Virus record (IMG/VR): IMGVR_UViG_3300023174_000053 | Coordinates: 32,001-96,000 of that record | Strand: one strand, 5' to 3' | DNA: 64,000 nt | From: a virus | Part shown: piece by piece, positions 4,652 through 32,423 of the stretch | How the letters are laid out: the number at the start of each line of letters is the position of its first letter | How positions within the stretch are numbered: position 1 is the first letter of the stretch | Notes under the pieces: model-generated | Databases searched by the model: none | What the model saw: the letters and a program-made list of their open reading frames with translations, nothing else | What the model was told of the DNA's origin: nothing | Position numbers and translations under genes: made by a program

Positions 4652-5174
4652 AATTTTTGTATTTTTTTAGGTATAATACTGCGGATTGTAAGGTACTTAT
4701 ATTATCACCAACTAGTCCTAACATACGATTACAATTACTACAGAGCAACCCACGAACTTTACCTGTAGAGTGGTTGTGGTCTACATAAAGACTATTACTA
4801 TCTTTTCTACCATTAGTATTTGGATTTAAGCAAATAGCACATACCTCGTTTTGTTCTTGGAGGATATTTTCATACTGTTCCAATCCAAAATCTTTACCAT
4901 AAGTATACTTTAACATATAGTCCTTCTTCTCACTATAAGAAGGTCTCTTATCTCTATAAGTTTCACTATAACAACTCTTACATCTCTTATGACCTTTATA
5001 GTATTCTGATATTGGTTTTTCTACACTACATTTATTACAAGTAATATGAGTTTTACTAGACCAGTTTTCAGCATAAGTTTTTTCTTCGCATCTTATACAT
5101 CTTCTACGACCTTCTCTAAAATCAGAGGTAGGAAGTTCTTTGGTGCAAGTTCTACAAATCTTCGTGGTTCTCAT
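4644..5174 (-). CDS. Endonuclease VII-family HNH homing endonuclease (F-CphI-like)
   Basis: Q...CAIC...LYVDHNH.TGKVRGLLCSNCN..LG, N-terminal CxxC repeats; directly downstream of psbA. Confidence 0.88.
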   Translation of the reverse strand: MRTTKICRTCTKELPTSDFREGRRRCIRCEEKTYAENWSSKTHITCNKCSVEKPISEYYKGHKRCKSCYSETYRDKRPSYSEKKDYMLKYTYGKDFGLEQYENILQEQNEVCAICLNPNTNGRKDSNSLYVDHNHSTGKVRGLLCSNCNRMLGLVGDNISTLQSAVLYLKKYKNYE

Positions 5175-5175
5175 T

Positions 5176-5219
5176 ATGGTGTTTAATCTTTTAACTATTT
5201 ATAAAATATTAAACTCCAT
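5176..5219 (-). promoter_or_regulatory. T4-type late promoter TATAAATA (5196-5203) inside an inverted repeat covering the translation start region
   Basis: ATGGAGTTTAAT...TATAAATA...ATTAAACACCAT-A-ATG on the minus strand. Confidence 0.7.
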
Positions 5220-5227
5220 TATACCAC

Positions 5228-5254
5228 AAAAAAAGAGACCCGTAAAGGGTCTCT
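5228..5254 (-). terminator. intrinsic terminator after psbA
   Basis: AGAGACCC-TTTAC-GGGTCTCT followed by a T-run. Confidence 0.8.
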
Positions 5255-5261
5255 AATGTTA

Positions 5262-6552
5262 TCAACCGATTGTTGGTGCAGTAAGAGCAACTTGTGTTGT
5301 CTCAGCAGCAGCAAGGTCTAAAGGAAAGTTATGTGCATTCTTAAACTTTTCTTAACTATCTGGTATTACTACCAGGATTGGACTATATCATCACCATTTC
5401 TGGTGTCGGACGCTTATTCCTGTTATTAAGGGAACTGTATCCCTCAGGTAGTCTCTGAACCTTTCTCAGATGTATCTGAGACTTGGCTGCTGATTGTCCC
5501 GTAGGATTTCCAGCAATTCATCCGATTTAAAGAGCGCAAAGCACAACTTGACGCTCATGAACCACTTCCAGTCCCAAATTTGCCCGATTAAGCACATCTG
5601 CCCAAGTAGGAATCACTCTACCTTGATGGTCAAGAATTGATTGATTAAAATTAAGACCATTAAGATTGAAAGATGAAACTGCAATACCCATAGCAGCACA
5701 CCAGATACCAAATACTGGAAGTGCAGCAAGGAAAAAGTGAAGACTACGGGAGTTATTGAAGGAAGCATATTGAAAAATAAGACGACCGAAATACCCGTGT
5801 GCAGCAACTATCGAATAAGTTTCTTCTTCTTGGCCAAACTTATATCCATAATTTTGAGATACTTGTTCGGTAGTTTCACGAACAATAGAAGAAGTCACAA
5901 GGGAACCGTGCATTGCTGATGCCAAAGCACCACCAAAAACACCAGCAACACCTAACATATGAAATGGATTCATAAGAATATTATGCTCTGCAGAAAATAC
6001 AAGCATATAATTAAAAGTTCCAGAAATACCAAGAGGCATTCCATCACTAAAACTTCCTTGACCAAAGGGATAAATCAAGAATACTGCGGTTGCAGCAACA
6101 GCAGGAGCACTATAAGCAACTGCAATCCAAGGACGCATACCCAAACGGTATGAAAGTTCCCATTCCCGACCAAGATAGCACCAGACACCAATCAAAAAGT
6201 GGAATACCACTGCTTGATATGCCCAACCATTATAAAGTGCTTCGTCAATAGAAGCAGCATCCCAAAGATTATAGAGATGCAGTCCAATCGCATTAGAAGA
6301 AGGAACAACAGCACCAGAGATGATGTTGTTTCCCCACATTAGAGACCCAGCAACAGGTTCTCTAATGCCATCAATGTCTACAGGGGGATTTGCAATAAAT
6401 GCAATAATAAAAACCGAAGTAGCAACAAGAAGGCAGGGAATCATCAGAACACCGAACCAACCAACATAAAGACGATTATCGGTAGAAGTCACCCAGGAAC
6501 AAAATTCGTCCCAGGCATTAAAAGTTTTGCGTGTAGCAATTGTAGCAGTCAT
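5262..6552 (-). CDS. psbA: photosystem II D1 protein, spliced join(6552..5551, 5339..5262), 359 aa, divergent
   Basis: Exon 1 ends ...VVHER (codon 334); exon 2 reads [25 protein letters not shown]; D61, Y161, D170, E189, H190, H198, H215, H332, E333, H337, D342 and A344 present. Confidence 0.96.
5340..5550 (-). ncRNA. group I self-splicing intron in psbA (211 nt, no ORF)
   Basis: Exon 1 ends in U and the intron ends in G; removal restores HER|NAHNFP; core-like AATTGCTGGAAA, AATCAGCAGCC, TCAGAGACTA and GATATAGTCC elements. Confidence 0.92.
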
Positions 6553-7013: not shown

Positions 7014-7065
7014 TATTTATACTATACCATAAGTAATCAAATTTGAAAAGTAGTATCCATAAATA
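7014..7065. promoter_or_regulatory. divergent late promoters (TATAAATA on minus 7014-7021; CATAAATA on plus 7058-7065)
   Basis: Each lies ~20-25 nt before a divergent start codon. Confidence 0.6.
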
Positions 7066-7089: not shown

Positions 7090-7584
7090 ATGAAAAGACT
7101 TCTATTAGCCTTTTCGTTATTCCTTACGACTCCTGTTTTTGCAGGTGAAATTACATCAACAATCACTGATTCCGTTCAATTAACAGTACAGGGTGCAGCG
7201 GTACAAACAGAAAGAATTGGTAGTTCCTATGCAGTTTCGGGAACTAATATTGGAGTTTCAGCATTAGGTGGATTGACTGGTGGTACATCAAGTGCAGCAG
7301 CAACAATGAGTGCTGGTACTTATGCTATTAATAATGATGGTCAAGCATTCACATTTGCAGAATCACTAACTGTTGGAGACAGCACTGTTTCATCACAAAC
7401 AGTATCTAATGGTGCGATTACATCACCAACTCTGTATGGTAAAAATACCACACAGGCAGCAGGTGATAAAGGTACTCTTGCAGGTACAATTAATACCTCT
7501 ACTGGTGCTCTCACATTTACTGCTGGTGGTGCTGGAACCACTGCTATTGGTCAACGTAGTGTAGAACTGAGCGTATTCAAGTGA
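7090..7584 (+). CDS. secreted Gly/Thr/Ser-rich beta-type protein
   Basis: Sec signal peptide MKRLLLAFSLFLTTPVFA; first gene of a plus-strand operon. Confidence 0.85.
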   Translation: MKRLLLAFSLFLTTPVFAGEITSTITDSVQLTVQGAAVQTERIGSSYAVSGTNIGVSALGGLTGGTSSAAATMSAGTYAINNDGQAFTFAESLTVGDSTVSSQTVSNGAITSPTLYGKNTTQAAGDKGTLAGTINTSTGALTFTAGGAGTTAIGQRSVELSVFK

Positions 7585-7940
7585 AACATATCCTAGCAGG
7601 CATTTGTCTGCTAGGGTTTTCTTTACCATCCCTAGCAGCTCCAGTCACACCAAACTTTACTAGTGGTACTGTAACTTCTCATACTGAATCCACCACAACA
7701 GTAAATGAGATAATTAGACAACAAGATTTCCAAACTGGATTTAGTTATACAGTTACTGGAACAAATATCAATATTCCAGGAACTCCAACTCTTGGAGCAG
7801 GATATTCTATTGTAAATCAAGGACAACCATTTCAGTTTTCAGAAACTTATATGGGTCCTGGATTGATTAAAGATACAACAGTCAATAGAACCACGACAAT
7901 TCAATCTGTCACAGATTCAATGTCAGTATTTACCCAATAA
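7581..7940 (+). CDS. secreted Thr-rich protein
   Basis: Signal peptide ...LPSLA-APVTPNFTSG; GTGA overlap with the upstream gene. Confidence 0.85.
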   Translation: MKHILAGICLLGFSLPSLAAPVTPNFTSGTVTSHTESTTTVNEIIRQQDFQTGFSYTVTGTNINIPGTPTLGAGYSIVNQGQPFQFSETYMGPGLIKDTTVNRTTTIQSVTDSMSVFTQ

Positions 7941-7941
7941 A

Positions 7942-8664
7942 ATGAAATGCCTACAAACAATCCTTGCTCTAGGTGTCTTTGTTCTCCCTGCGTATGCAGA
8001 GGGGGATACTCCTGTAACTGCAATTGCAAATCCTCAGGCAACATCAACAGGAAGTGTAACAAACCAAGCAGTACAAGTCTTACAAGGTCCATACGTGACC
8101 AATTCATACGGTGGTGGAGTAAGTTGTCAGGGACCAACCTTTAATCTTACTCCCTTTATGACCACATCCAAAAGTGGTTCAAGACCTTTTGAAGCATATG
8201 CGGATATTGATAATGACCCAACCACAGGAATAAATGGATTAGAAAGAACTGGTCAAAAAGATACATTCTCAAATAACTTTGGTCTGTCAGCAACTCTTTC
8301 ATTTCCATTAGATGGTGGATTACAGGAAAGATGTAAGACTGCTGCAGATACTTGGACTGCTAGACAAAGAGCAGAAACAGATAAGGCGAGATTAGATTTT
8401 GAACTTGTAAGATTATTAAAATGTGGAGAAGCAAAGAAAGCAGGTATTTTCTTTATTCCTTCTTCTCCCTACGCAAGGATATGTGCGGATGTCGTCGTGA
8501 TTCAGCAAATTCCTGCCTCTGGCGTAATTTCTCAGCCTTCTGTTCCTTCTTCAAAAGTTTCAAAGTCTTCTTATCCAGTTCCAAAGCAAACAACATCTGA
8601 GTCTCGTAAGGCGTCAGATCTCGGTTCAACAATTGCTTCCCCCGAACAAAAGTTTGCTCAATAA
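7942..8664 (+). CDS. secreted Cys-containing protein, possible outer-membrane beta-hairpin/helical subunit
   Basis: Signal peptide ending AYA; SCQGPTFNLTPF...FGLSATLSFPLDGG...RLDFELVRLLKCG. Confidence 0.8.
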   Translation: MKCLQTILALGVFVLPAYAEGDTPVTAIANPQATSTGSVTNQAVQVLQGPYVTNSYGGGVSCQGPTFNLTPFMTTSKSGSRPFEAYADIDNDPTTGINGLERTGQKDTFSNNFGLSATLSFPLDGGLQERCKTAADTWTARQRAETDKARLDFELVRLLKCGEAKKAGIFFIPSSPYARICADVVVIQQIPASGVISQPSVPSSKVSKSSYPVPKQTTSESRKASDLGSTIASPEQKFAQ

Positions 8665-9181
8665 TAGGTTTTAAAACTTTTACCAACTGTTCAACCAAAG
8701 ATTTGCCAATAAGAGCCGCAGCGACACTAGCAGTAGCAGTGGTGCCAGATAATACAACCGTTTGTGTAGAGGGGACTGGAATTGGTCCAATATAAGGAAC
8801 ATTAATAGTCGGAGCATCTATTTCTGGTGTTGAAGAATCAATCTTCTGTTGTTGTGGTGGTAATGAAATTGGTGCTTGTTTTAAAGTATCAGTAATTGAT
8901 TTAGTGTCTGGAAGTCCTCTGGATTTATCTTGTATTTCTTCTTCTTTCTTTGGTTCTTGTTGGGCATTTACCATTTTCCTAAACTCTTCAGTTGTAGGAG
9001 CATCAATAGGTTCATAGTTTGGAATACCATCCATAGGAACATCCACAATAGGTTTTGGAAGTGTTCTATTAATTGGTATAAGAATAGGTGGAGGTTCCAA
9101 ATTACGAATAACTGGAACCTCCACCCTTGGTGTTTCTATACTATTTGTTTTTATATCAGGAATTTCTGGTACGTTTGGCAT
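8453..9181 (-). CDS. proline-rich protein with a C-terminal hydrophobic segment
   Basis: PxIP/PxVP repeats, TTATASVAAALIG segment, basic C-terminus. Confidence 0.75.
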   Translation of the reverse strand: MPNVPEIPDIKTNSIETPRVEVPVIRNLEPPPILIPINRTLPKPIVDVPMDGIPNYEPIDAPTTEEFRKMVNAQQEPKKEEEIQDKSRGLPDTKSITDTLKQAPISLPPQQQKIDSSTPEIDAPTINVPYIGPIPVPSTQTVVLSGTTATASVAAALIGKSLVEQLVKVLKPIIEQTFVRGKQLLNRDLTPYETQMLFALELDKKTLKLLKKEQKAEKLRQRQEFAESRRHPHISLRREKKE

Positions 9182-9575
9182 CTAATTCAGCAAAGTTTTT
9201 CTTTTTTGTACCTCCATCGTAAGACCAGGCCATGCCAGCATCAATCATTTGTTCATTAAGTGAGTTTGTTTGGTCATTAATGAATAGGTGACCAATAATT
9301 CTTCCATACTTCTCAGTACTATCTGGAAGCTCAGTTTTAATTAAAATGTTCTTAGCATTTTCTATTTTATGCTTCAACCATTCTTTTGACTCAATCCCAT
9401 ACTTTTTCTCATTAACATCTGCCGTTCTTGATTCGGGAGTATCTACACCAGCAAGACGAATTCTTTTTTCTAATGCAATATCAAACCCCAAATCTATTGA
9501 TGCGTCAATCGTATCACCATCAACTACTTTTAAAATCTGTTTGATTCTGTAAATATAAGGATCCTTATTATCCAT
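9156..9575 (-). CDS. thermonuclease (SNase-like)
   Basis: VVDGDTID, RIRLAGVDTPE, KYGRIIG, LNEQMIDAGMA. Confidence 0.92.
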   Translation of the reverse strand: MDNKDPYIYRIKQILKVVDGDTIDASIDLGFDIALEKRIRLAGVDTPESRTADVNEKKYGIESKEWLKHKIENAKNILIKTELPDSTEKYGRIIGHLFINDQTNSLNEQMIDAGMAWSYDGGTKKKNFAELDAKRTRNS

Positions 9576-9799
9576 CAGAATGGTAACTTAAACTTCGAAG
9601 TATTTAGGTTGGGAATGGGTAATTTTTGAAATGCTTTGCCGACTTGTTCTTCCACAACTTTATCTACGATGGAACTTACAAAGTCTTCTGGGTGATTGAT
9701 AATCGTTTCTGCTTTTTTGTAGGTTATATAAGCACCAACTGCTAAACCTAAAGATACAGTTAAACTGAGTGCTGATAGAATTAGTGATAGTTCTTTCAT
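9575..9799 (-). CDS. small single-TM membrane protein
   Basis: MKELSLILSALSLTVSLGLAVGAY; start placed by the ATGA overlap. Confidence 0.65.
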   Translation of the reverse strand: MKELSLILSALSLTVSLGLAVGAYITYKKAETIINHPEDFVSSIVDKVVEEQVGKAFQKLPIPNLNTSKFKLPF

Positions 9800-9906
9800 T
9801 CCCTTTCCTCTAAATATGCCATTCTTAGTATATAGTAAATACAATAACAAGTAAAAATTAAACCAGAACCGAGAATTATGCAAACTCCCCAAGGAAAATC
9901 AGTCAT
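9796..9906 (-). CDS. 36 aa membrane peptide (MTDFPWGVCIILGSGLIFTCYCIYYILRMAYLEERE)
   Basis: Hand-translated; ATGA overlaps at both ends. Confidence 0.6.
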   Translation of the reverse strand: MTDFPWGVCIILGSGLIFTCYCIYYILRMAYLEERE

Positions 9907-10097
9907 TCTCTTCCTTCCTCTTTGTGTATAAAAACTTTTAAATCTTTAACATACTTTCTTAGTATCTGTGCCTGTTCCTCATGCCAAAAATTACCCGTCT
10001 CCAAATGAAGACGGGTGTGGTTATCTATGGCTTTCAGAATTTGATGTATTGGTTTATTCCAACACTCACGTTTGGGAGTGTTCCACTCTCTTGCCAT
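9903..10097 (-). CDS. conserved cyanophage hypothetical protein
   Basis: REWNTPKRECWNKPIHQILKAIDNH. Confidence 0.75.
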   Translation of the reverse strand: MAREWNTPKRECWNKPIHQILKAIDNHTRLHLETGNFWHEEQAQILRKYVKDLKVFIHKEEGRE

Positions 10098-10103
10098 AAG
10101 TCC

Positions 10104-10208
10104 TCATTTTTTCTTGCCACCATTCTTTGCTTTCTTTGCTGTAGCATTCCCTTGATTCTGTTTGGAACCATTGGAATCTTTCTTGCCTTTGTTTGATGAT
10201 TTTGCCAT
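10104..10208 (-). CDS. 34 aa basic peptide (MAKSSNKGKKDSNGSKQNQGNATAKKAKNGGKKK)
   Basis: Hand-translated; TAATG coupling with the upstream gene. Confidence 0.6.
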   Translation of the reverse strand: MAKSSNKGKKDSNGSKQNQGNATAKKAKNGGKKK

Positions 10209-10552
10209 TATGCACCAGTTGTACGAGGTTGAACTTGTCCTTCCTCAAGTGCTTCAACTCTTTCTTCAAGAGATACAGTTGTTTCGTCAATTGTTGAAAC
10301 AGGTGGTTCGGGAGGTGCTTCTACAACTGTCTCAGTTCTTGGAAGTTCCTTCTTTTCATCTTCATCATCACCACCTTTCTTCATTGTATTAATACCAAAA
10401 GTAGCAGCAGAAGCAGTAAATACTGTAGCAATGAATGTGGGATCCATTTTAGCAAACATACCAGCATAACTTGCGGTAAGTAGTGCGGCAGACCAACTCA
10501 AAATCACAACACGAATTAGTTGTCCCATACCATTTTCCTTTTTGTTGTTCAT
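10208..10552 (-). CDS. two-TM membrane protein, holin candidate
   Basis: Two hydrophobic helices and a charged C-tail, immediately downstream of the lysozyme. Confidence 0.6.
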   Translation of the reverse strand: MNNKKENGMGQLIRVVILSWSAALLTASYAGMFAKMDPTFIATVFTASAATFGINTMKKGGDDEDEKKELPRTETVVEAPPEPPVSTIDETTVSLEERVEALEEGQVQPRTTGA

Positions 10553-10570
10553 TTTTGTTAGTTTAATAGG

Positions 10571-11242
10571 TTAACCTTTTTTCCAAGATTCACCTTCTGC
10601 TTTTCTTCTACGAGCAAGTCCTGCTTCTACATTAGATCCAGGATTTCTGTACAAGTAAATCGCATCGGGAACTAAGTCCCATTCTTTATTCTTCAGTGTG
10701 CGTGTAATAGTATTGAAATTATCACCACCATAAAAACCAGCACCAAGATTATAAGCAAAGGAGAGAAGTGCTCCTCTTTTGCCGTCAGACATTTCATTCC
10801 AGTGTGGAATTTTACGAAGTGATGGAAGAAACTGGTTCTTACATTGAGTAATCAATAACTCATCTGCTTCCTGTTGAGTGATGGTATCACCCATATGGAA
10901 TGGTGATCCATCCTTCTTACGGGTAGTTCCCCAACCTATGGTGATTGGAAGTCCACCTGAGAGAGGATCTGGATATGCTTTGAGATGGCATCCTTCAAAC
11001 TCTTTAATGAGTTTTAGACCTGTCATGGGCATATCATCACCACCTGCTACAGGAGCGGCAGCAGTTGATGTAGATGCTGGTGTCGCATTACCCCTTTTTC
11101 CTCTATAAATCTCCGCCCAATCTACAGTATCATCAAGATACTTAACCGGGAGATTATCTTCTAACCACTGAACTGCTTTGATGTGATTAGGGTTCTTCTC
11201 GTCATAAAACTTGAAGAAGTTGTGTAAGTCGATACGTGCCAT
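10571..11242 (-). CDS. GH24 phage lysozyme (endolysin) with N-terminal accessory domain
   Basis: LIKEFEGC..AYPD...TIGWG, ALLSFAYNLG, GLARRRKAE. Confidence 0.92.
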   Translation of the reverse strand: MARIDLHNFFKFYDEKNPNHIKAVQWLEDNLPVKYLDDTVDWAEIYRGKRGNATPASTSTAAAPVAGGDDMPMTGLKLIKEFEGCHLKAYPDPLSGGLPITIGWGTTRKKDGSPFHMGDTITQQEADELLITQCKNQFLPSLRKIPHWNEMSDGKRGALLSFAYNLGAGFYGGDNFNTITRTLKNKEWDLVPDAIYLYRNPGSNVEAGLARRRKAEGESWKKG

Positions 11243-11260
11243 TAGTTTTCTCCTTATGTA

Positions 11261-11932
11261 TCAATCGAAAATGCGACCCCAACCATCGTTGCCACCTGGG
11301 CACCAACGATGCTTAAGAACTGCTTTGGTGTAAATGGTCTTCTTACCATTTTCTACTGGTCCAGTATAGTTATCATTTAACGAACCATAAGGATCGTTAA
11401 CATAATATCCTTTACCATCTGGTGTCTTACCAATAATTACACACATGTGCCCACCAGTAGGTGAAGAAAGAGAACCCCTATGAAGAATACCAATAACAAC
11501 AGGTTTACCAGCATCCAAACTCTTATCAATATCAGAGAAAGAAAGATTGTAACTAAAGTGTGACTTAACACCAAAACCTTGTAGAACTTTGGTTTGAACT
11601 GAGTGATCAGTTGTGTCACCAATGGCAAATACTTTCTTAACATACTCATCATCACCTTTGATGCTTCCTGGTTTTAGGAACGCAAGGCACATAGCACACG
11701 ATGAAGAGTTACATGTGCGGTGAGCATCTCTGTAGTTGTCTACTTGATTAAAGTAAGGAACCGACAATACTGATGGTGTTGGCGGTTTTGTTCTAAACAT
11801 TCCTATCCACTCGGTTTCAGAATCATCAAGGAATTCAGCAGGTAGGTTATCCTCTAACCATTGAACTGCTGCTACATGATTTGCATTACCATCATCATAA
11901 TACTTAAAAAAGTTATGAAGATCCAGTGTCAT
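11261..11932 (-). CDS. C39-like cysteine peptidase with the same N-terminal domain
   Basis: VPYFNQ..RTCNSSSCAM, GKPVVIG, GGHM, VNDPYG. Confidence 0.88.
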   Translation of the reverse strand: MTLDLHNFFKYYDDGNANHVAAVQWLEDNLPAEFLDDSETEWIGMFRTKPPTPSVLSVPYFNQVDNYRDAHRTCNSSSCAMCLAFLKPGSIKGDDEYVKKVFAIGDTTDHSVQTKVLQGFGVKSHFSYNLSFSDIDKSLDAGKPVVIGILHRGSLSSPTGGHMCVIIGKTPDGKGYYVNDPYGSLNDNYTGPVENGKKTIYTKAVLKHRWCPGGNDGWGRIFD

Positions 11933-12587: not shown

Positions 12588-13382
12588 TTACTTGCCTTCC
12601 CATCCTGGGGGAAGGGTTCCAAAGTAAGGATCATAATCAAATATTTCATTCCAATCAGAAATATCAACTGCTTGATTTCTCCAAAAATGCCACAATCCTT
12701 CATAACTTGATTTGTGAAATACATCTACATGCTCTGTATGAATGGAAGATCCCAATTCAATTCTATAAAGAAATAAAGGTATAGCAAAAGTATTTCCTGA
12801 GTTATAAATCAAATCATCCGCAACTGCTCTTGGTTTAACTCCATTATCAAGCTTATACTTATCACCACGAACGTGAAGATTGATAATTTTTTGTGCATGA
12901 TATCGAGTAATTAAATAGCAAGCAGTCGAAAAATCATTTACAAATCTGCGGTGCATCTTGAGATGGACTTGTGCAGGATTAATAATCGCAAGTTGAATGA
13001 CATCATAATCATAAGGAACTTTAGAAAAGAAATCTTTCCAAGTAAATCCCCAATGCTTTACCGTATCAAGATCACAATCATCTTCCATAATTAAGGCATA
13101 AGGTGAATCAGAAGTTTCCAAAAAATGTTGAAGGGCCTTCAGGTGCGATGTCACGCAACCAACCTCACTAGAGGACATATTATCAGGATAACGACCTTTA
13201 AGAATATCTCCAAGGTCTCTCCCGTCCCTTCCATCATAAGCAGAGATACGAGTATAATTTTCAATCTCCCAATACTTGAATTGATCCTCCATATATTCTC
13301 TTCTTTCTGGTTGCCCATCAAGATTTAAATAATAGATTGGACCAATACCTTGAAGTTTATAAGTTGATTTGTTTTTATCCAT
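12588..13382 (-). CDS. glycosyltransferase family 25
   Basis: IYYLNLD..ERR, EVGCVTSH, LIMEDD. Confidence 0.88.
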   Translation of the reverse strand: MDKNKSTYKLQGIGPIYYLNLDGQPERREYMEDQFKYWEIENYTRISAYDGRDGRDLGDILKGRYPDNMSSSEVGCVTSHLKALQHFLETSDSPYALIMEDDCDLDTVKHWGFTWKDFFSKVPYDYDVIQLAIINPAQVHLKMHRRFVNDFSTACYLITRYHAQKIINLHVRGDKYKLDNGVKPRAVADDLIYNSGNTFAIPLFLYRIELGSSIHTEHVDVFHKSSYEGLWHFWRNQAVDISDWNEIFDYDPYFGTLPPGWEGK

Positions 13383-13397
13383 TATTATAATTTATAT

Positions 13398-15131
13398 TTA
13401 AGAATTTAAAATTTGTTTTTTATCATAAGGTGAATGTATAATTCTGGATTTAAAATTAAATTGATCATCAGGATAATCTCCAGGTTTTGCAAATGAAGGA
13501 CTTAAAACATTAAAATTATCTATATTTTCTATTCTATATTTGTTTAAATAACTTTCATCATGAGCAACAGTGATAATTTCATTTTTTAAATCTTCTAATA
13601 TTCTATCATCTAATTCTTCAATCATATCGATGATATCTGGAATTTTTCCTCCCCACACACACCCCTGAAGATACAAATCGTCTTTTTGATCTTCTATTTT
13701 AACACATGCTAAAGACTTTTCATTTCTTTCAAATGGAAGTTTTTCTCCAGATGATGAAGTAAATTTACATAAATTTGAATTTTGGCAAGGATGCTGAACA
13801 CCAAAAAATGACTTACTTTCATCAAAAAATTCTTCATATCCAATAACTTCGGAACAACAATACATATCAGCATCAAAATATACATACCAATCATAATTTA
13901 AAAGTTGTTTTTTAATTTTTTTGAGTTCACCAAATCTTCTCAATCCACCAATACTATTATAAGTCAACTTATATCTATCAGAATAATCCGATATAGTTAT
14001 TTCATCATTTTCAGATACTGGTATTATTTTAATATTTTCTGGGAGATTTCCATCAAGATCACCATCAGTAAAGACGAAAAAATCTTTTTCACATTCAGGA
14101 ACAAAATATTCCATAAATGTTTCATAATACTTAGGGAAAAATTTAAGATAATTTCCACTACCAATAAAATTAATTGCTATTTTCTTTTTGGACATCATTT
14201 TTTCAATATTTGGTAAGTAATAGTTTTGAATGACTGTTTCCCAATCAAATTGTTTTGCATATTCCAATATTTCTTCCCTATGTGAAATTGAATATTCTCT
14301 ATTTTTTACAATTTGATTTTCAATATAATTTATATCATTTATTTTATCTTCAGAAATAATAGTAATAAACTCTTTATTTGGATCTAAATTTGCTTTTCCC
14401 CATTCACAAACAACTACACCAAGTCCAGCAGCAAGTGCTTCCATACAAACTAGAGGATGTGCTTCTCCATCAGAAAGAAGTACAAGATTTCCATAGTCAG
14501 TTAAATTTTCATACAAATATTGTTTGTCCCATTCTCCAAGATAATTTTTATTTTTATCAAATCTATCATCTCTAATATTTCCAGCATACCAAAGAGATTT
14601 AATATCTTGAAATAAAAATTGCCTTTTTCTGTGATCTATAGTTGCCAAATAAATTGATTTATGAAAAAATTTTGGATTTTTAGATATTTTAAAATTTTCA
14701 AAATTTACACCATTGGGATTCAAAAATAATTTATTAGATGGAATATCACATACATCTTTATAAACTTTATTGATACTATCAGAGAGTCCAAATAAATTAG
14801 GTTTAATTTTTGAATATACATCAAATACTCTTTCTTTATATGGACCCATCATTTCAGGTCTTTCTAAATATGCAAAGTGTGTTGTTATAGCGCATGGATA
14901 CTTTATATGGGGATAAAGATATACATAATCATCATAATGAATGTGAACAAAATCTGGATTAAATTTATCTATTTGTTCTATAACTTCATTTAAATTTTGT
15001 GTATTAATAATTTGAATTTCATGCCCCAACTTTTCTAAAGTTAGTTTATAATCCCATATCAAAATTTCTATTGCACCCCAACCAGTAGGTGGGATAGGCA
15101 TAATACCTGGACCGATTAAAGAAATTTTCAT
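13398..15131 (-). CDS. two-domain glycosyltransferase (GT4-like N-terminal + GT6-like C-terminal)
   Basis: PIPPTGWGAIE, DGEAHPLVCMEALAAG; FIGSGNY, FVFTD, YFDAD, GCVWGG, HDESYLNKY. Confidence 0.85.
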   Translation of the reverse strand: MKISLIGPGIMPIPPTGWGAIEILIWDYKLTLEKLGHEIQIINTQNLNEVIEQIDKFNPDFVHIHYDDYVYLYPHIKYPCAITTHFAYLERPEMMGPYKERVFDVYSKIKPNLFGLSDSINKVYKDVCDIPSNKLFLNPNGVNFENFKISKNPKFFHKSIYLATIDHRKRQFLFQDIKSLWYAGNIRDDRFDKNKNYLGEWDKQYLYENLTDYGNLVLLSDGEAHPLVCMEALAAGLGVVVCEWGKANLDPNKEFITIISEDKINDINYIENQIVKNREYSISHREEILEYAKQFDWETVIQNYYLPNIEKMMSKKKIAINFIGSGNYLKFFPKYYETFMEYFVPECEKDFFVFTDGDLDGNLPENIKIIPVSENDEITISDYSDRYKLTYNSIGGLRRFGELKKIKKQLLNYDWYVYFDADMYCCSEVIGYEEFFDESKSFFGVQHPCQNSNLCKFTSSSGEKLPFERNEKSLACVKIEDQKDDLYLQGCVWGGKIPDIIDMIEELDDRILEDLKNEIITVAHDESYLNKYRIENIDNFNVLSPSFAKPGDYPDDQFNFKSRIIHSPYDKKQILNS

Positions 15132-16024: not shown

Positions 16025-16757
16025 AATTTTCCATTTCTTGTTTTTTTAATTTTATAGATTCATATATTGAAGTCTTCAATTTAGTAGAAGAATACTCATG
16101 AGATTCTCTATCCAACCAAACAATTTGAATTGAAATATTTTCTCCTGTATAAGGTCTTGTTTTATAATCAGTACCTAAAAACCTTATATTATATTCCCCA
16201 CTTCTCAAATAGTCAAGATATTCTTCTTCTACTTTATAAGTAACCACATCATCAATATATTTGATGCTTCTAAGAATCTCCATCCTTTCTTCAACACTTT
16301 GAACTGGTTGAAGTTTATATGATCGTTCTACTGATGGATCTTCATGAAGTGCAACTGTTAAATGATTACAATACAATTTAGCATCCTTAAACATGCGGAT
16401 ATATCCAGGATGAATTACATCAAAAGCACTCGCAATAATACCTTTTTTTAATGAGCAAGTTTTTTTCCACTCTTCTACATTAATACCCTTATCATCAATA
16501 AACAGATGCGCGTGTGGTTTCACATGCATAATAAGTTGGTGATGATAAACTCCCCAAGCACGTAACTGCTCTTTGGTGAGATCTGAATGATCCACACCAC
16601 TCACGCATCCACGAGCAGTCATAATTATAATTTTATGTCCACAATTAAAAAGACGATTAATCTCTTTAACAACTGTTAAATCGGGAAGTGCGTTTTGATA
16701 CTGACTCCCCTCAACAGAAGTACAGATAGTTCCATCTAAATCAAAACAATAAATCAT
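16017..16757 (-). CDS. HAD phosphatase fused to TagD/HldC-like cytidylyltransferase
   Basis: FDLDGT...FIDDK, then FDVIHPGY...FLGTDY. Confidence 0.85.
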   Translation of the reverse strand: MIYCFDLDGTICTSVEGSQYQNALPDLTVVKEINRLFNCGHKIIIMTARGCVSGVDHSDLTKEQLRAWGVYHHQLIMHVKPHAHLFIDDKGINVEEWKKTCSLKKGIIASAFDVIHPGYIRMFKDAKLYCNHLTVALHEDPSVERSYKLQPVQSVEERMEILRSIKYIDDVVTYKVEEEYLDYLRSGEYNIRFLGTDYKTRPYTGENISIQIVWLDRESHEYSSTKLKTSIYESIKLKKQEMENYD

Positions 16758-17257
16758 ACTACTCCATGCAAAAAGATTTGATGAACACACTCAACGATTC
16801 CATAATCTCTACTGTCAATATGATAGTCCCAGAGAGCATTATTGGCAATACTTCTTGCTTTATTTGTAAAGTTAAAACCAGTCAAAATACCATAAGAAAT
16901 CGTGTTACTCTCACAATACTTAATACAGTTAATAATATTTTTAGATTCACCACCAGAACTAATTAAGATGCAAAGAGTTTCTGGTGTTGAATAATATTCC
17001 AGAAATTTTCGATATGCATTCTCCATTCCAAAATCATTAATAAAACAAGTCAACATTGATGGATCAGAAAACACCAAAGAATTCTTATTATGAAATTTTA
17101 CATAATCCTGAGAGATATGTGATGCAACGGAATTGCTTCCACCATTACCAAGAATGATAATATTATTATACTTGTTGAAGGCATCTTTAAATTTAGAAAA
17201 TTGTTCTTCAATATGAGCACCATGAAGTGCATCAATATAATTTGAAAAAGGATTCAT
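16754..17257 (-). CDS. gmhA: SIS-domain phosphoheptose isomerase (GmhA-like)
   Basis: GNGGS..ASH, NDFG, ISSGGESKNI, YGIVECVH. Confidence 0.8.
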   Translation of the reverse strand: MNPFSNYIDALHGAHIEEQFSKFKDAFNKYNNIIILGNGGSNSVASHISQDYVKFHNKNSLVFSDPSMLTCFINDFGMENAYRKFLEYYSTPETLCILISSGGESKNIINCIKYCESNTISYGILTGFNFTNKARSIANNALWDYHIDSRDYGIVECVHQIFLHGVV

Positions 17258-18201
17258 ATTTTTCTACCAACAACTCCATTAGATTCTACATTTATTTTAA
17301 CAGATTGGTATGGAACAGTCAAGGAATCCTTTTCAGAAAACACGAGAAAAAATCCACCATTACCAGCACCACATAGTTTATGAGCAAGAACAGTTTCATT
17401 TTCATTTAATTGTTCGTCTATTTCTTTTATAGTAGAACTCTCAGTAATTGTGGAACTTGTTTTCTTTTTTTGAATCCAACTTTTATTCAAATAATTAAGA
17501 AACTTGCCATAATCTTTTTGGAGAAGAGCATCATATGCCTTATCTACAGTTGCAAGAAGTGGTTTAGACTTATCAATGTTATCAGTAACATCTTTCAAAA
17601 CATTTTTGGAATTGCGAGTTACTCCAGTAAAGACAAGATGAGCATCATATATTTTAAAGAATTCTGTTGGAAGAAAATCATATTTTACGATTCCACCTTT
17701 CTTAAATTCCATTCTTTTGAATCCACCAATACCACATCCATAAGGATCTTGATATCCACAATAAGGATTCATTTCTAGTTCTAATTGATATGCAAGTTCG
17801 CAGATTTCAATATCAGTCATCTGCAAATCATTAAATATAGAAATTGATTTAATTAAACTAATAATATAAGACGAAGATGATGCCAATCCACTTCCCTGTG
17901 AGTAAGCATCACTCGTCATAGAAACATTAATTGGGTGAACTCCAAAATAATTGAGAACAATTCTTACCAATTCATTTTCAATATCTCCAATAAATTCCGT
18001 TTCTTCTCTTTTAGAGTAATTAATAATATATTTGCTCTGATTGTAATTATACCCAATTTTATCCTCATGAAGAGTAATATAGGTTTTTAAATCACAAGTA
18101 AAACTAATTACAGATCCATACCCATACTTTTCTACAAAATATGGATTATCTGTTGAACCACCAAATAAAGAGACTCTTAGTGGACAAGATGATATAATCA
18201 T
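17254..18201 (-). CDS. GHMP sugar kinase (HddA-like heptose-7-phosphate kinase)
   Basis: PLRVSLFGGSTD, GSGLASSS, GYQD, KLCGAGNGGF. Confidence 0.88.
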   Translation of the reverse strand: MIISSCPLRVSLFGGSTDNPYFVEKYGYGSVISFTCDLKTYITLHEDKIGYNYNQSKYIINYSKREETEFIGDIENELVRIVLNYFGVHPINVSMTSDAYSQGSGLASSSSYIISLIKSISIFNDLQMTDIEICELAYQLELEMNPYCGYQDPYGCGIGGFKRMEFKKGGIVKYDFLPTEFFKIYDAHLVFTGVTRNSKNVLKDVTDNIDKSKPLLATVDKAYDALLQKDYGKFLNYLNKSWIQKKKTSSTITESSTIKEIDEQLNENETVLAHKLCGAGNGGFFLVFSEKDSLTVPYQSVKINVESNGVVGRKI

Positions 18202-19163
18202 AAATTTATAATATTTTCAATATCATTTACATATTTTTTCATTTTTTCAACCAAGGAAAATGATTCAATTCCATACTCTCTAATTTCATTCCTTCTTTCC
18301 AAAGATACTTTTCTATTTTCAAATATTTTTTTAGAAATATATTCTAAATCATTCAACTTTTCATTAGGAATTACCTCAATAAAATTTAAACTAGTATCAA
18401 GTTCATTTACATTTTGCTCGGAAACTACAACTCCCAAACCAAGAATTAGAGCTTCCATTATAACCATTGCTGTGCCATTTTCACCATCACTAAGATGAAC
18501 AAGATTTGCATATGATGTAATTATACCATTACTTTTCAATTCCCCCAAATAATTTTTATTTTCTGGGTCAAAAGATGTTCCAGGAAAATACTTACCAACA
18601 AAATCTATTCCTGGAATAGATTGATATAGATATTGTTTTTTCCTTTGATGAATTTGACCAAGATAAAGAGATTTATTTGGATTTTCGCATTCACTATTAT
18701 ATCTAAATTCAGAAACTAGGGGTCCTTCTCTTAAATGAAAAATTCTATCTTTTGGAAATCCATTTTCAATAAAAAAATCATAATTTTTTGGAGAAACAGA
18801 AAAATTATAAAATTTATTTCCATTATTTAAAATATAGTCAAAAATTTTATCATATCCATCACGTCTATGCATATTTACCTGTTCAATATATGGGTAATGA
18901 CTGCTAAACAAAATTGGACATTTTACTTTATCATACAAATAATCAACAACAGGATAATGTTGATCATAATGAAAATGAATTACATCATAATCACCATTTA
19001 AACATTCTGCAGTAATCTCATTCATATCTGGAGTATTCAAAATATCCCCCTCATGCCCTAATTCACTTAAAGCACAAGATCTATACCAAATAGCTCTTTC
19101 TACTGCACCCCATCCTGTTGGTGGGATAGGCATTATTCCTGGACCGACTAAACAAATTTTCAT
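18198..19163 (-). CDS. GT4-like glycosyltransferase
   Basis: MKICLVGPGIMPIPPTGWGAVE, paralogous to the N-domain of 13398-15131. Confidence 0.82.
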   Translation of the reverse strand: MKICLVGPGIMPIPPTGWGAVERAIWYRSCALSELGHEGDILNTPDMNEITAECLNGDYDVIHFHYDQHYPVVDYLYDKVKCPILFSSHYPYIEQVNMHRRDGYDKIFDYILNNGNKFYNFSVSPKNYDFFIENGFPKDRIFHLREGPLVSEFRYNSECENPNKSLYLGQIHQRKKQYLYQSIPGIDFVGKYFPGTSFDPENKNYLGELKSNGIITSYANLVHLSDGENGTAMVIMEALILGLGVVVSEQNVNELDTSLNFIEVIPNEKLNDLEYISKKIFENRKVSLERRNEIREYGIESFSLVEKMKKYVNDIENIINL

Positions 19164-19981
19164 TTTGTTAACTCTGTAAATAACTCCATTTGTTTCCAAT
19201 TATTTCTATAAAATATTTCAAAAAATTCTGGTTTATTTTTTACAAGATAACCCAAAGCAATTTGTTCGTTATTTAAATTATTTTTAGAAATCATATCATT
19301 AAAAAGAATATTTTCAATTTCACCTAAAATTTTGGGGTGAATGTTTTTATGCATACCAAAAAAAGTACCACAAACGAATGACCTAGCATCATAAAAGTAA
19401 CTTCTATCTAAAGAATTTGAAGATACAAGATCAGAATAAGATTCCATATTTTGTTGTATAAGAAATTTTTCTCCCAATTCATCCAATTCTTTATTAGCAG
19501 CAACTCCTGGAAATTCTTGTTCCAAATTAAATCCATCAAAAAATCTAGATGCTCCTGCATCAATCCAAAAAAATAATTCACTATTAAAATCATTATTTTG
19601 GATTGATTTTTCAATCCATTTAAATTTAGAATACTGAATAATAGAATAAAGAGAATAATTACACTCTATTCTATCCAAAACTGTCATTTTATTTTTATAA
19701 TCATCGGATTGAAGAATTGAATCCATTTTATCTTTTAAGTAATAATATGGAATTTCGTCAAGTCTTTGGGAAATAATCTTAGTATTTTGATCTTCTCTAT
19801 GACTTTTTACAAAATCCACAAGACTCTCTTCTACAAAAATAACCATAGGGCATTTTAATTTTAACGTCACAGAAAACCATTGAAGATATTCATCCCAGGT
19901 TCTTCCATCCATATTTTCCCTATTAATATTAAATAAAGCCGTGGTAATTGTTATATTTTTCATAATTAAATTCTTTCCCAA
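19160..19981 (-). CDS. HtrL/WlaTC-like glycosyltransferase
   Basis: TITTALFNI, FFWIDAG, NNEQIAL. Confidence 0.7.
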   Translation of the reverse strand: MGKNLIMKNITITTALFNINRENMDGRTWDEYLQWFSVTLKLKCPMVIFVEESLVDFVKSHREDQNTKIISQRLDEIPYYYLKDKMDSILQSDDYKNKMTVLDRIECNYSLYSIIQYSKFKWIEKSIQNNDFNSELFFWIDAGASRFFDGFNLEQEFPGVAANKELDELGEKFLIQQNMESYSDLVSSNSLDRSYFYDARSFVCGTFFGMHKNIHPKILGEIENILFNDMISKNNLNNEQIALGYLVKNKPEFFEIFYRNNWKQMELFTELTK

Positions 19982-31784: not shown

Positions 31785-32423
31785 TTAGACTTCTACTTGA
31801 ACTAGTCGAGATGCATAATCATAAGCATAAGATGTGCGAGCACCATGATGCCCCCAACCAATCCAATTGTACGCATAGTCCATATAACGATTAATTGATT
31901 TACCAGGAGTTTTCATCTTCTCCTCAATTCGTTGCCATTGAACTTCATTTGTAAGATAACGAAGTTGCGTTTGAAGTGATGATGGAGAACCACCATACTT
32001 CTTAGCAAAATCACCCAATCCATAATAACGATTCGCAGATGTCCATTGAATCAAACCATAACCACCTGAGCAATTATAGTATGACGTTATACTACCACCT
32101 TCACAAACACTAGATTGGAATGTTGATTCCTGTTTAATGTTGCCCATGATGGTAGCAAGGGCGTTTCTGTCTTTGATTCCAATATCTTGGAAGTAATCAA
32201 GAGCATTTTGCTCTACATTTGAACACCCTTTACAAATTAACCTTTTCTCTTTTGGTTTTTCGGGAACAACCTCTTTGGTCGTTGTCTTGGTCTCAAACTC
32301 CTTAATCACAGAAAATGGTGGCGGGGCACTCAATGGGGGAGGAGGAAATAAACCAGGCAATGTTGCCATATTGGTCGTAACCGCTGCCAAAAGGGGCAAG
32401 GTTACTGTAAAGAAATTTTGCAT
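31785..32423 (-). CDS. phage tail lysozyme-like cell-wall hydrolase (Phage_lysozyme2-like)
   Basis: ALATIMGNIKQES, GYGLIQWT..R, QLRYL. Confidence 0.85.
   Translation of the reverse strand: MQNFFTVTLPLLAAVTTNMATLPGLFPPPPLSAPPPFSVIKEFETKTTTKEVVPEKPKEKRLICKGCSNVEQNALDYFQDIGIKDRNALATIMGNIKQESTFQSSVCEGGSITSYYNCSGGYGLIQWTSANRYYGLGDFAKKYGGSPSSLQTQLRYLTNEVQWQRIEEKMKTPGKSINRYMDYAYNWIGWGHHGARTSYAYDYASRLVQVEV

Follow-up and report, generated by a model that had tools for sequence, protein, structure and literature searches.

A conserved exported gene trio of cyanophages and its membrane-protein partners, a candidate module for the outer-membrane step of lysis

Two-component spanins, such as Rz/Rz1 of phage lambda or gp18.5/gp18.7 of T7, combine an inner-membrane component with an outer-membrane component and work alongside a small holin-like protein, gp17.5 in T7. 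The i-spanin is an N-in/C-out coiled coil and the o-spanin is an outer-membrane lipoprotein. In T7, the holin and spanin genes are located between the tail fibre and terminase genes. A spanin survey recorded none in Syn9, P-SSP7, P-SSM2, P-SSM4, P-HM1/2, S-SM1, Syn19 and others, and 20 of its 91 spanin-less phages infect Prochlorococcus or Synechococcus (PMC6139136). Its authors could only suggest a fragile host outer membrane, and they pointed out that an N-out/C-in inner-membrane protein plus an outer-membrane protein (OMP) could act as a spanin (PMC6139136). Here, we analyse a 64-kb stretch of DNA, hereafter the window (positions 32,001 to 96,000 of IMG/VR record IMGVR_UViG_3300023174_000053), taken from a 171-kb T4-like cyanophage record. 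It carries three consecutive genes, g1, g2 and g3, which encode exported proteins and lie close to genes for two membrane proteins, A and B.

The trio, A and B form an already catalogued, functionally blank, near-core cyanophage module that is found in nearly all phages of marine picocyanobacteria. What is new in the present analysis is a g3 homo-oligomer model that passes its controls, the joint absence of the parts from phage S-PM2, and the existence of cellular g3 homologs. Among the options raised by a first-pass annotation of the window, the one we favour is that this envelope module opens a breach in the outer membrane at lysis. It is the best candidate reading and a tentative one, somewhat short of an even chance.

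A counter-oriented trio of exported proteins

Nearly all genes of the window are on the minus strand. Of its open reading frames (ORFs) of at least 110 residues, 69 share this orientation and 8 are on the plus strand; the six plus-strand ORFs that are not part of the trio locus have no PHROG match. The gene psbA (5527-6552, minus strand) is near the trio. The plus-strand locus comprises the following features.

7058-7065, plus strand: putative T4-late-type promoter box, CATAAATA, 32 nt upstream of the g1 ATG
7090-7584, plus strand: g1, 164 aa, exported G/S/T-rich beta protein, paralog of g2
7581-7940, plus strand: g2, 119 aa, exported DUF6322 protein, GTG start
7942-8664, plus strand: g3, 240 aa, exported gp165-family protein, ATG start

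The GTG start of g2 overlaps the g1 stop in a GTGA, and 2 nt separate the g2 stop from the g3 ATG. Each of the three proteins begins with a basic n-region, a hydrophobic core and an AxA-type site, as read from the sequence, with putative cleavage at VFA↓G, SLA↓A and AYA↓E in g1, g2 and g3, respectively. No lipobox (L-[AS]-[GA]-C) is present in g1, g2 or g3, and the same holds for the podovirus homologs. A lipoprotein reading of g2 through the letters LAGIC was rejected because their spacing is unlike that of a lipobox.

The CATAAATA box is one of two NATAAATA words on the plus strand of the window; 23 are on the minus strand. In phage DSL-LC03, GATAAATA is found at -33 relative to the g1 homolog. 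More generally, in six of nine phages the 100 nt preceding the g1 homolog contain a TAAATA box, mostly some 30 nt ahead of the start, over a background of 0.04-0.09 per 100 nt. Judging from the box, the trio would be expressed late. Syn9, S-RIM8 and ACG-2014a have no TAAATA upstream of the operon; about 30 nt upstream of the start of their gp167 homologs, they share a conserved CCTACATA(T/G)(A/T) word that may be a variant promoter. The first-pass annotation had described three translationally coupled genes with Sec signal peptides under their own late-type promoter, forming the only plus-strand operon. This description of the locus stands, with the promoter as a putative element.

All three genes match PHROG families of unassigned function, at E values of about 1e-31 to 1e-69. 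These are phrog_564 for g1 (E 8e-31), phrog_650 for g2, and phrog_848 (E 3.4e-69) together with phrog_1755 for g3. As each also has hundreds to thousands of homologs, the trio genes are real. g2 matches PF19847 (DUF6322; E 2.9e-18, 66.7 bits for a cut-off of 30.6). The Pfam scan of the window protein gave no PF19847 match for g1 itself. Since precomputed tables list PF19847 for close homologs of g1, which itself aligns to g2 (32% identity, E 2e-7), we regard g1 and g2 as paralogs. g3 has more than 3000 homologs at 90% clustering, in 309 clusters at 50% identity, and none of them is named. It belongs to the gp165 family, as seen from its profile match, its four conserved cysteines and its position downstream of a DUF6322 gene.

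The phage-collection records with g3 (461), g2 (406) or g1 (245) are all cyanophages, and co-occurrence of the three genes across cyanophage genomes was confirmed, as the first-pass annotation would lead one to expect. In Syn9, the counterparts of g1, g2 and g3 are gp167, gp166 and gp165, a trio that is likewise counter-oriented. They correspond to the clusters T4-GC 237, 236 and 235 of Sullivan 2010, all designated 'Hypothetical-Protein' (PMC3037559). Both T4-GC 235 and T4-GC 237 occur in all but one of 16 cyanomyoviruses; the 10 other T4-like phages have neither (PMC3037559, supplement 3). T4-GC 234-237 have no 'YES' for proteomics in the same table, a mark that true structural clusters do carry (PMC3037559, supplement 3). 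A literature search retrieved no functional assignment for the trio.

Some g1 homologs are labelled 'OMP1 protein' or 'opacity protein-like surface antigen'. These labels, the export of beta-rich proteins and the existence of host homologs could suggest small porin-like proteins of the outer membrane through which an infected cell takes up more nutrients, an auxiliary metabolic role next to that of phage pstS and similar genes. The labels are however automatic and no Pfam OMP match backs them, a late-type promoter suits nutrient acquisition poorly, and g2, with 100 residues in its mature form, is too short for a monomeric barrel. Such a function would also leave A and B unexplained, and we consider it quite improbable.

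Database annotation of the gp165 family is uneven. Many entries, including that of Syn9 (13211-14095 of the examined stretch) and metagenomic homologs, have long K/R/H/N-rich N-terminal extensions, which arise from reading the 3' end of the preceding DUF6322 gene in a different frame. Because no stop precedes the true start in those genomes, gp165 starts are widely mis-called. In P-SSP7, the homolog is unannotated in GU071093.1 (about 37.8-38.5 kb) and is split over two frames (4914-5366 and 5311-5535 of the examined stretch, together 4914-5535), which on its sequence is a frameshift or a sequencing error.

Linkage to a Pro-rich membrane protein and a holin-like gene

Downstream of g3, on the minus strand, the window contains A, B and the lysis genes.

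8453-9181, minus strand: A, Pro-rich membrane protein, phrog_9426 (E 3e-10) and phrog_570 (E 0.011)
9156-9575, minus strand: SNase-like nuclease
10208-10552, minus strand: B, DUF6450 small membrane protein of 114 aa, PF20048 (E 1e-16)
10571-11242, minus strand: phage lysozyme (endolysin), PF00959 (E 2.8e-21) and endolysin PHROGs
11261-11932, minus strand: C39-like cysteine peptidase, second putative endolysin, PF13529 (E 9.5e-14) and phrog_10051 'endolysin' (E 1.9e-75)

The trio had been described as lying next to the lysis cluster. This is roughly right, the DUF6450, lysozyme and C39-like peptidase genes being 1.5-3.3 kb away and on the other strand.

Protein A shares its family with Syn9 gp164 (T4-GC 234) and with the phrog_9426 proteins of podoviruses. 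As a tblastn search with this low-complexity protein returned only 2 records, PHROG profiles were used instead. phrog_570 comprises Syn9 gp164 and its S-SKS1 counterpart, and A of the window matches this profile as well as phrog_9426. A has one weakly hydrophobic transmembrane segment (141-159), with a charge of -7 on its N side and +9 on its C side. In four homologs, the segment is also late in the chain, with -5 to -10 on the N side and a basic C side of +5 to +13. Because the N side is acidic and the C side basic, an N-out/C-in topology is predicted. The genes of A and g3 are convergent and overlap by 212 bp (8453-8664), a region where the g3 tail is S/P-rich and not conserved. The same type of overlap measures 80 nt in Syn9, about 215 nt in P-SSM2 and only about 4 nt in P-HM1.

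Protein B has two hydrophobic segments and a net charge of -9 on its C side, and its gene is 19 nt downstream of the lysozyme gene. Small, membrane-embedded, with a charged C-terminus and encoded beside an endolysin, it is holin-like by sequence. It belongs to the Syn9 gp161 family, found in 422 cyanophage records, and it is located within a few kb of g3 in most of the records listed. DSL-LC03 has the same layout as the window, with B after two endolysin genes.

Of 16 cyanomyoviruses, 15 carry A, g3 and g1 next to one another, and the 10 T4-likes that are not cyanophages all lack them. Syn9 has gp161 (B) first, followed by two further genes and by gp164 (A), which converges on gp165-167. S-PM2 has none of T4-GC 234-237, and searches did not find g3 or DUF6450 in it either; the parts of the module thus come and go together. 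The association extends to five T7-like cyanophages, P-SSP7, S-RIP1, NATL2A-133, P-SSP3 and P-SCSP1g, with the order A, B, g2, g3. There, the g3 homolog (E 1e-26 to 1e-39) comes immediately after a g2 homolog (E about 1e-14), A is Pro-rich with one late, weakly hydrophobic transmembrane segment and a very basic tail, and B is DUF6450 in all five. The four genes sit between tail fibre and small terminase (TerS), the same genome position as that of the T7 spanin/holin set.

This position after the tail fibre genes and the late-type promoter could also fit virion structural proteins with uncleaved hydrophobic N-termini. Against this stand three canonical signal peptides, the four conserved cysteines of g3, the lack of a proteomic mark, unlike true structural clusters, and the orientation of the trio opposite to the structural genes. 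The AxA signal peptides, the cysteines and the missing virion-proteomics mark point to export and oxidative folding, and we regard a virion role as very improbable.

Like two-component spanins, the module would have an inner-membrane and an outer-membrane component together with a small holin-like protein. A and g3 fit the survey's description of an N-out/C-in protein plus an OMP. There is nevertheless no sequence similarity to spanins, and three exported proteins are encoded rather than one. In contrast to the lipoprotein o-spanin, g1-g3 are signal-peptidase-I proteins with beta-hairpins, and A, Pro-rich, with its transmembrane segment late in the chain and a predicted N-out/C-in topology, differs from the N-in/C-out coiled coil of the i-spanin. 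The module also differs in having a cellular homolog family. In these features it does not match the two-component spanins, g1-g3 having no lipobox and A not being predicted as a type II protein. That the first-pass annotation recognised no spanin agrees with the survey, none being known for these phages (PMC6139136).

Lysis is our leading reading because the module, late by its promoter box and directed to the envelope, is restricted to picocyanobacterial phages, has a holin-like gene linked to it and, in podoviruses, is placed where T7 has its lysis genes. The Pro-rich anchor, the DUF6450 gene and the position of the podovirus cassette are what this reading rests on.

Several features of the neighbourhood were noted in passing. 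The lysozyme and the C39-like peptidase (10571-11932) both match phrog_3617, in different parts of its 405-position profile, a pattern that fits a lysin fused in other phages and split into two genes here. Between the SNase-like nuclease and DUF6450, two minus-strand ORFs, one of 105 aa (9575-9892), strongly hydrophobic at 35-53, and one of 64 aa (9903-10097), have no Pfam or PHROG match. In the Synechococcus phage DSL-LC03, a close relative, a gene at 9039-10688 of the examined stretch, located between DUF6450 and the two endolysin genes, encodes a 548-aa 'autotransporter outer membrane beta-barrel domain-containing protein' that matches neither Pfam nor PHROGs and is without counterpart in the window.

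Predicted fold and self-assembly of g3, and its companions

Alignment of 36 diverse homologs delineates a conserved g3 core at about residues 25-190, followed by a variable S/P-rich C-terminal tail. Cysteines 62, 131, 161 and 181 are each kept in at least 90% of these homologs. The segments GPTFNLTPFMTTS and NNFGLSATLSFPLDGG occupy positions 64-76 and 111-126, and a helix starts at about 125. Across 150 sequences, hydrophobic and small polar residues alternate without exception at 111-123, and a partial hydrophobic/polar alternation is seen at 66-74. The amphipathic hairpin can thus be placed at 66-82 and 106-123. The loop between its strands varies in length among homologs and is often Asp-rich.

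The AlphaFold2 model of g3 predicts strands at 54-82 and 106-122, a 42-residue helix at 125-166 and a short helix at 176-180. Its predicted local distance difference test (pLDDT) values are 87-97 over 110-190 and low in the conserved N-terminal stretch. The model is extended, as expected for the protomer of an assembly. Two amphipathic strands followed by a long helix, and four cysteines in the mature part, were among the features seen at first pass, and both are borne out by the conservation of the family; the model agrees with the order of strands and helix.

Oligomer modelling of g3, also suggested at that stage, was carried out with four copies of residues 25-195 beside three controls. The four copies scored 0.54, compared with 0.00 for the best control. 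In a benchmark, 20 of 30 proteins solved as pairs attained this mark, as did 1 of 23 solved as single chains; these counts apply only roughly to g3 because its own alignment and four copies were used. Three runs agreed in at least 85% of contacts, with a partner pLDDT of at least 65. In the models, strand 64-82 runs antiparallel to strand 106-124 of the next copy (70-118, 76-112 and 80-106) and the helices 127-166 of neighbouring copies are packed side by side. This predicted geometry, a joined sheet over bundled helices, supports a multi-subunit beta-barrel or arc over a helix bundle. It also supports, at the level of a model, the view that g3 works like a hairpin-plus-helix outer-membrane oligomer.

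Structural searches with the g3 model did not bring out a described relative. Foldseek against the PDB gave nothing at E<=0.001, the best row being the FlgH L-ring (E 0.25, root-mean-square deviation 38 Å). The VIA wide search matched the single long helix alone (Z about 5), and the matches in ESM Atlas and BFVD all belonged to the same viral family, itself uncharacterised. A PDB profile search gave nothing for g3, and NCBIfam nothing meaningful.

The outer-membrane channels of the TolC/OEP family deserve a specific comparison, since g3 had been proposed to be a possible single-repeat member. As in TolC, an amphipathic strand pair ends in a P-L-D/G-G turn and leads into a long periplasmic helix, and the predicted g3 oligomer joins its sheet over bundled helices. 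Read from the sequence, the motif is G-L-S-x-x-L-S-x-P-L-x-G-G, then helix. However, TolC is a trimer with two repeats per protomer, that is four strands and paired long helices, whereas g3 has one hairpin, one long helix and four conserved cysteines per chain, and closure of a barrel would need more than three copies.

Comparison of the g3 family profile with E. coli TolC gave an hhalign probability of 1.1%. g3 has no Pfam match at E<=1, and OEP (PF02321) is matched by 0 of 36 family members at E<=10. OprN (5iuy_A) and a TolC model reached only Foldseek E values of 3.9-4.7. No periplasmic adaptor, membrane-fusion or inner-membrane pump gene is present in the module, the rest of the genome not having been searched for one. 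The proposed kinship did not survive the sequence comparisons. At the sequence level, a diverged TolC/OEP member is effectively refuted, and we give this origin almost no credence. We read the likeness of about a dozen residues as convergence on an amphipathic strand, a tight turn at the membrane face and a periplasmic helix.

The g2 model (pLDDT 74) is all-beta. Two strands of 24-25 residues (28-51 and 94-118), formed by the N- and C-terminal parts of the chain, are predicted to pair, with a small head between them. Its best Foldseek row is lysenin (5ec5_A, E 8.8e-3), a weak one with a TM-score of about 0.2. Other weak rows correspond to the stems of aerolysin, epsilon toxin and anthrax PA, to tail tube hairpins of phi29, P68 and Andhra, and in one case to a spore appendage; the best VIA row is the phi29 collar (Z 4.1). 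Ring-forming hairpins are the common theme of these look-alikes, which we take as a lead rather than a match. Aerolysin-family pores have in common with the g2 model, and by paralogy with g1, a Ser/Thr-rich hairpin of about 24 residues per strand. Unlike these pores, where the hairpin is an insertion loop, g2 would form it from its terminal strands, and it has neither a receptor-binding nor a cap domain in its 100 mature residues.

The idea that g1 and g2 are G/T/S-rich, beta-prone proteins thus holds, in agreement with the g2 model and with their paralogy; the accompanying comparison with fibre subunits finds no direct support, the weak look-alikes being pore stems and tail tubes. This bears on what had been the main reading at first pass, in which g3 is an outer-membrane duct that exports g1 and g2, these polymerising into a fibre in the manner of curli. 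The trio does resemble CsgG with CsgA/CsgB in having an oligomeric outer-membrane candidate with a membrane-type hairpin, and two exported, paralogous, Gly/Ser/Thr/Asn/Gln-rich beta proteins, here with conserved terminal strands; the spore appendage row is in the same vein. It differs from curli in that g3 is not a lipoprotein, g1 and g2 have no repeat units, no CsgE/F-like parts are present, and the trio is phage-borne and, from its promoter box, presumably expressed late. There is no sequence match or significant fold match to CsgG, CsgA or pilins, and the g2 model shows one long hairpin and a small head rather than a solenoid of repeats. A late fibre on a cell about to lyse has no obvious use, and the linkage with A and B would remain unexplained. 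We consider an export channel with its fibre improbable.

For the favoured breach of the outer membrane, we infer an outer-membrane location, contact with A and B, late timing and a lytic role, and propose the following course. The three proteins would be made late and exported by Sec into the host periplasm, where g3 would become disulfide-bonded. Copies of g3 would then assemble by way of their amphipathic beta-hairpins, giving a sheet that runs on from subunit to subunit as a barrel or arc of outer-membrane type. The long helices would be bundled beneath it, and the variable, often Asp-rich loop would face outward. The paralogous g1 and g2, as long-beta-hairpin subunits, may join or extend this assembly. 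The trio would act with phage-only A, the Pro-rich inner-membrane anchor with N-out/C-in topology, and with holin-like B. At the end of infection, this five-part envelope-spanning module would breach or destabilise the outer membrane and stand in for spanins.

Cellular relatives and the weighing of a lytic role

A g3 profile search of 301 Cyanobiaceae genomes returned two matches, a podovirus contig and the chromosome of Synechococcus sp. WH 8020. The chromosomal match lies in a 5-kb islet of 41-45% guanine-cytosine (GC) content, within flanks of 55-61%, between queA-like and cysK genes. Its gp165-like protein (204 aa, near WB44_00330) has the same signal peptide, hairpin, helix and four cysteines as g3, and matches the phage profile with an hhalign probability of 97.8% (E 1e-12). 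The islet (about 56-61 kb of the chromosome; 16275-19766, 1823-2272 and 531-926 of the examined stretches L094, L092 and L095, respectively) encodes seven secreted, mostly beta-rich or Cys-rich proteins including this one, annotated as hypothetical. A second, more distant host type (hhalign 92.1%) is an operon of two secreted beta-rich proteins, a g3-like gene and a Cys-rich secreted protein.

The cellular operons thus contain true g3 homologs flanked by secreted beta-rich proteins, as the phage module does. These neighbours have aromatic, OMP-like C-terminal ends and share a G-x-S-[FY]-x-V-[ST]-G motif with g1 and g2. When compared with DUF6322, they gave hhalign probabilities below 1% and nothing with hmmsearch. 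Because only this short motif is common to them and to g1/g2, we do not claim homology of the whole operon. Other differences are that the cellular operons, also uncharacterised, are chromosomal and sparse, include Cys-rich secreted proteins absent from the phage module, have no DUF6450, and show no recognisable DUF6322 among those examined. Only three assemblies contain DUF6450 and DUF6322, which are neighbours in them as they are in phage contigs; the genomes that carry cellular g3-like genes have neither.

These relatives are the basis of the main alternative, in which the phage builds an outer-membrane or surface structure late in infection, as the cellular operons do, and the envelope is not broken. 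Receptor masking, superinfection exclusion, keeping progeny off debris or holding the envelope intact until lysis are proposed purposes, and we regard the alternative with these purposes as rather unlikely. It draws on the chromosomal g3 homologs in Cyanobiaceae and other cyanobacteria, on their beta-rich neighbours with aromatic ends and the common motif, and on the absence of DUF6450 from the host loci. Host-like genes are in addition common in cyanophages, psbA being next door, and S-PM2 lyses without the module. On the other side, remodelling does not account for the tight linkage with phage-only A and holin-like B in two unrelated phage families, or for the position equal to the T7 lysis cassette in the T7-like phages. 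Exclusion functions are usually early and the box here is of late type, and the host neighbours have no significant DUF6322 profile match. Moreover, the low GC content of the WH 8020 islet is phage-like, so that some host copies may come from phages.

Several of our own results weigh against a role in lysis. S-PM2, a lytic cyanomyovirus, manages without the module, and a pore alone does not obviously rupture an outer membrane. With the WH 8020 protein as query, gp165-like relatives are found in 27 of 401 Cyanobiaceae genomes (about 7%), and the host-family profile matches 9 of 401 genomes across the phylum. Some of the chromosomal loci, at 60-67% GC, look native and have no DUF6450 nearby. As these homologs occur without DUF6450, the ancestral role of the gp165 fold was probably in a normal envelope structure, not in lysis; the phage module may either have turned this fold to lysis or use it as the host does. 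Model confidence is middling, with a pLDDT of 72 and a predicted TM-score (pTM) of 0.47 for g3 and a pLDDT of 74 and pTM of 0.33 for g2, and the structural matches of both are all below significance. The predicted topology of A comes from charge bias about a weakly hydrophobic segment. Finally, no PF00959 lysozyme was found in Syn9, P-SSP7, S-SKS1 and S-RIP1, so that linkage to a known endolysin is seen only in the lineage of the window.

We are inclined to doubt, without dismissing it, a bolder extension of the lytic reading, namely that the module, next to spanins and disruptin-type peptides, constitutes a third class of phage machinery for breaching the outer membrane, with a new structure. 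In such a machinery, an oligomeric OMP-type gp165 hairpin barrel, with two long-hairpin DUF6322 subunits, would be connected across the periplasm to the Pro-rich N-out/C-in anchor, and the DUF6450 holin would take part in its triggering. Its origin would be a cyanobacterial envelope system, and T4-like and T7-like cyanophages would have it in common.

A large share of ocean primary production is set free when phages lyse Prochlorococcus and Synechococcus. The outer-membrane step of this lysis is without known genes, and the module offers concrete knock-out targets in engineerable cyanophages. If the phage instead remodels the envelope as its host does, the module would be a near-universal phage-borne copy of an unstudied cyanobacterial surface system and would bear on receptor masking and host range. 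Under either reading, a function would be given to four families that have been labelled 'hypothetical' since 2010.

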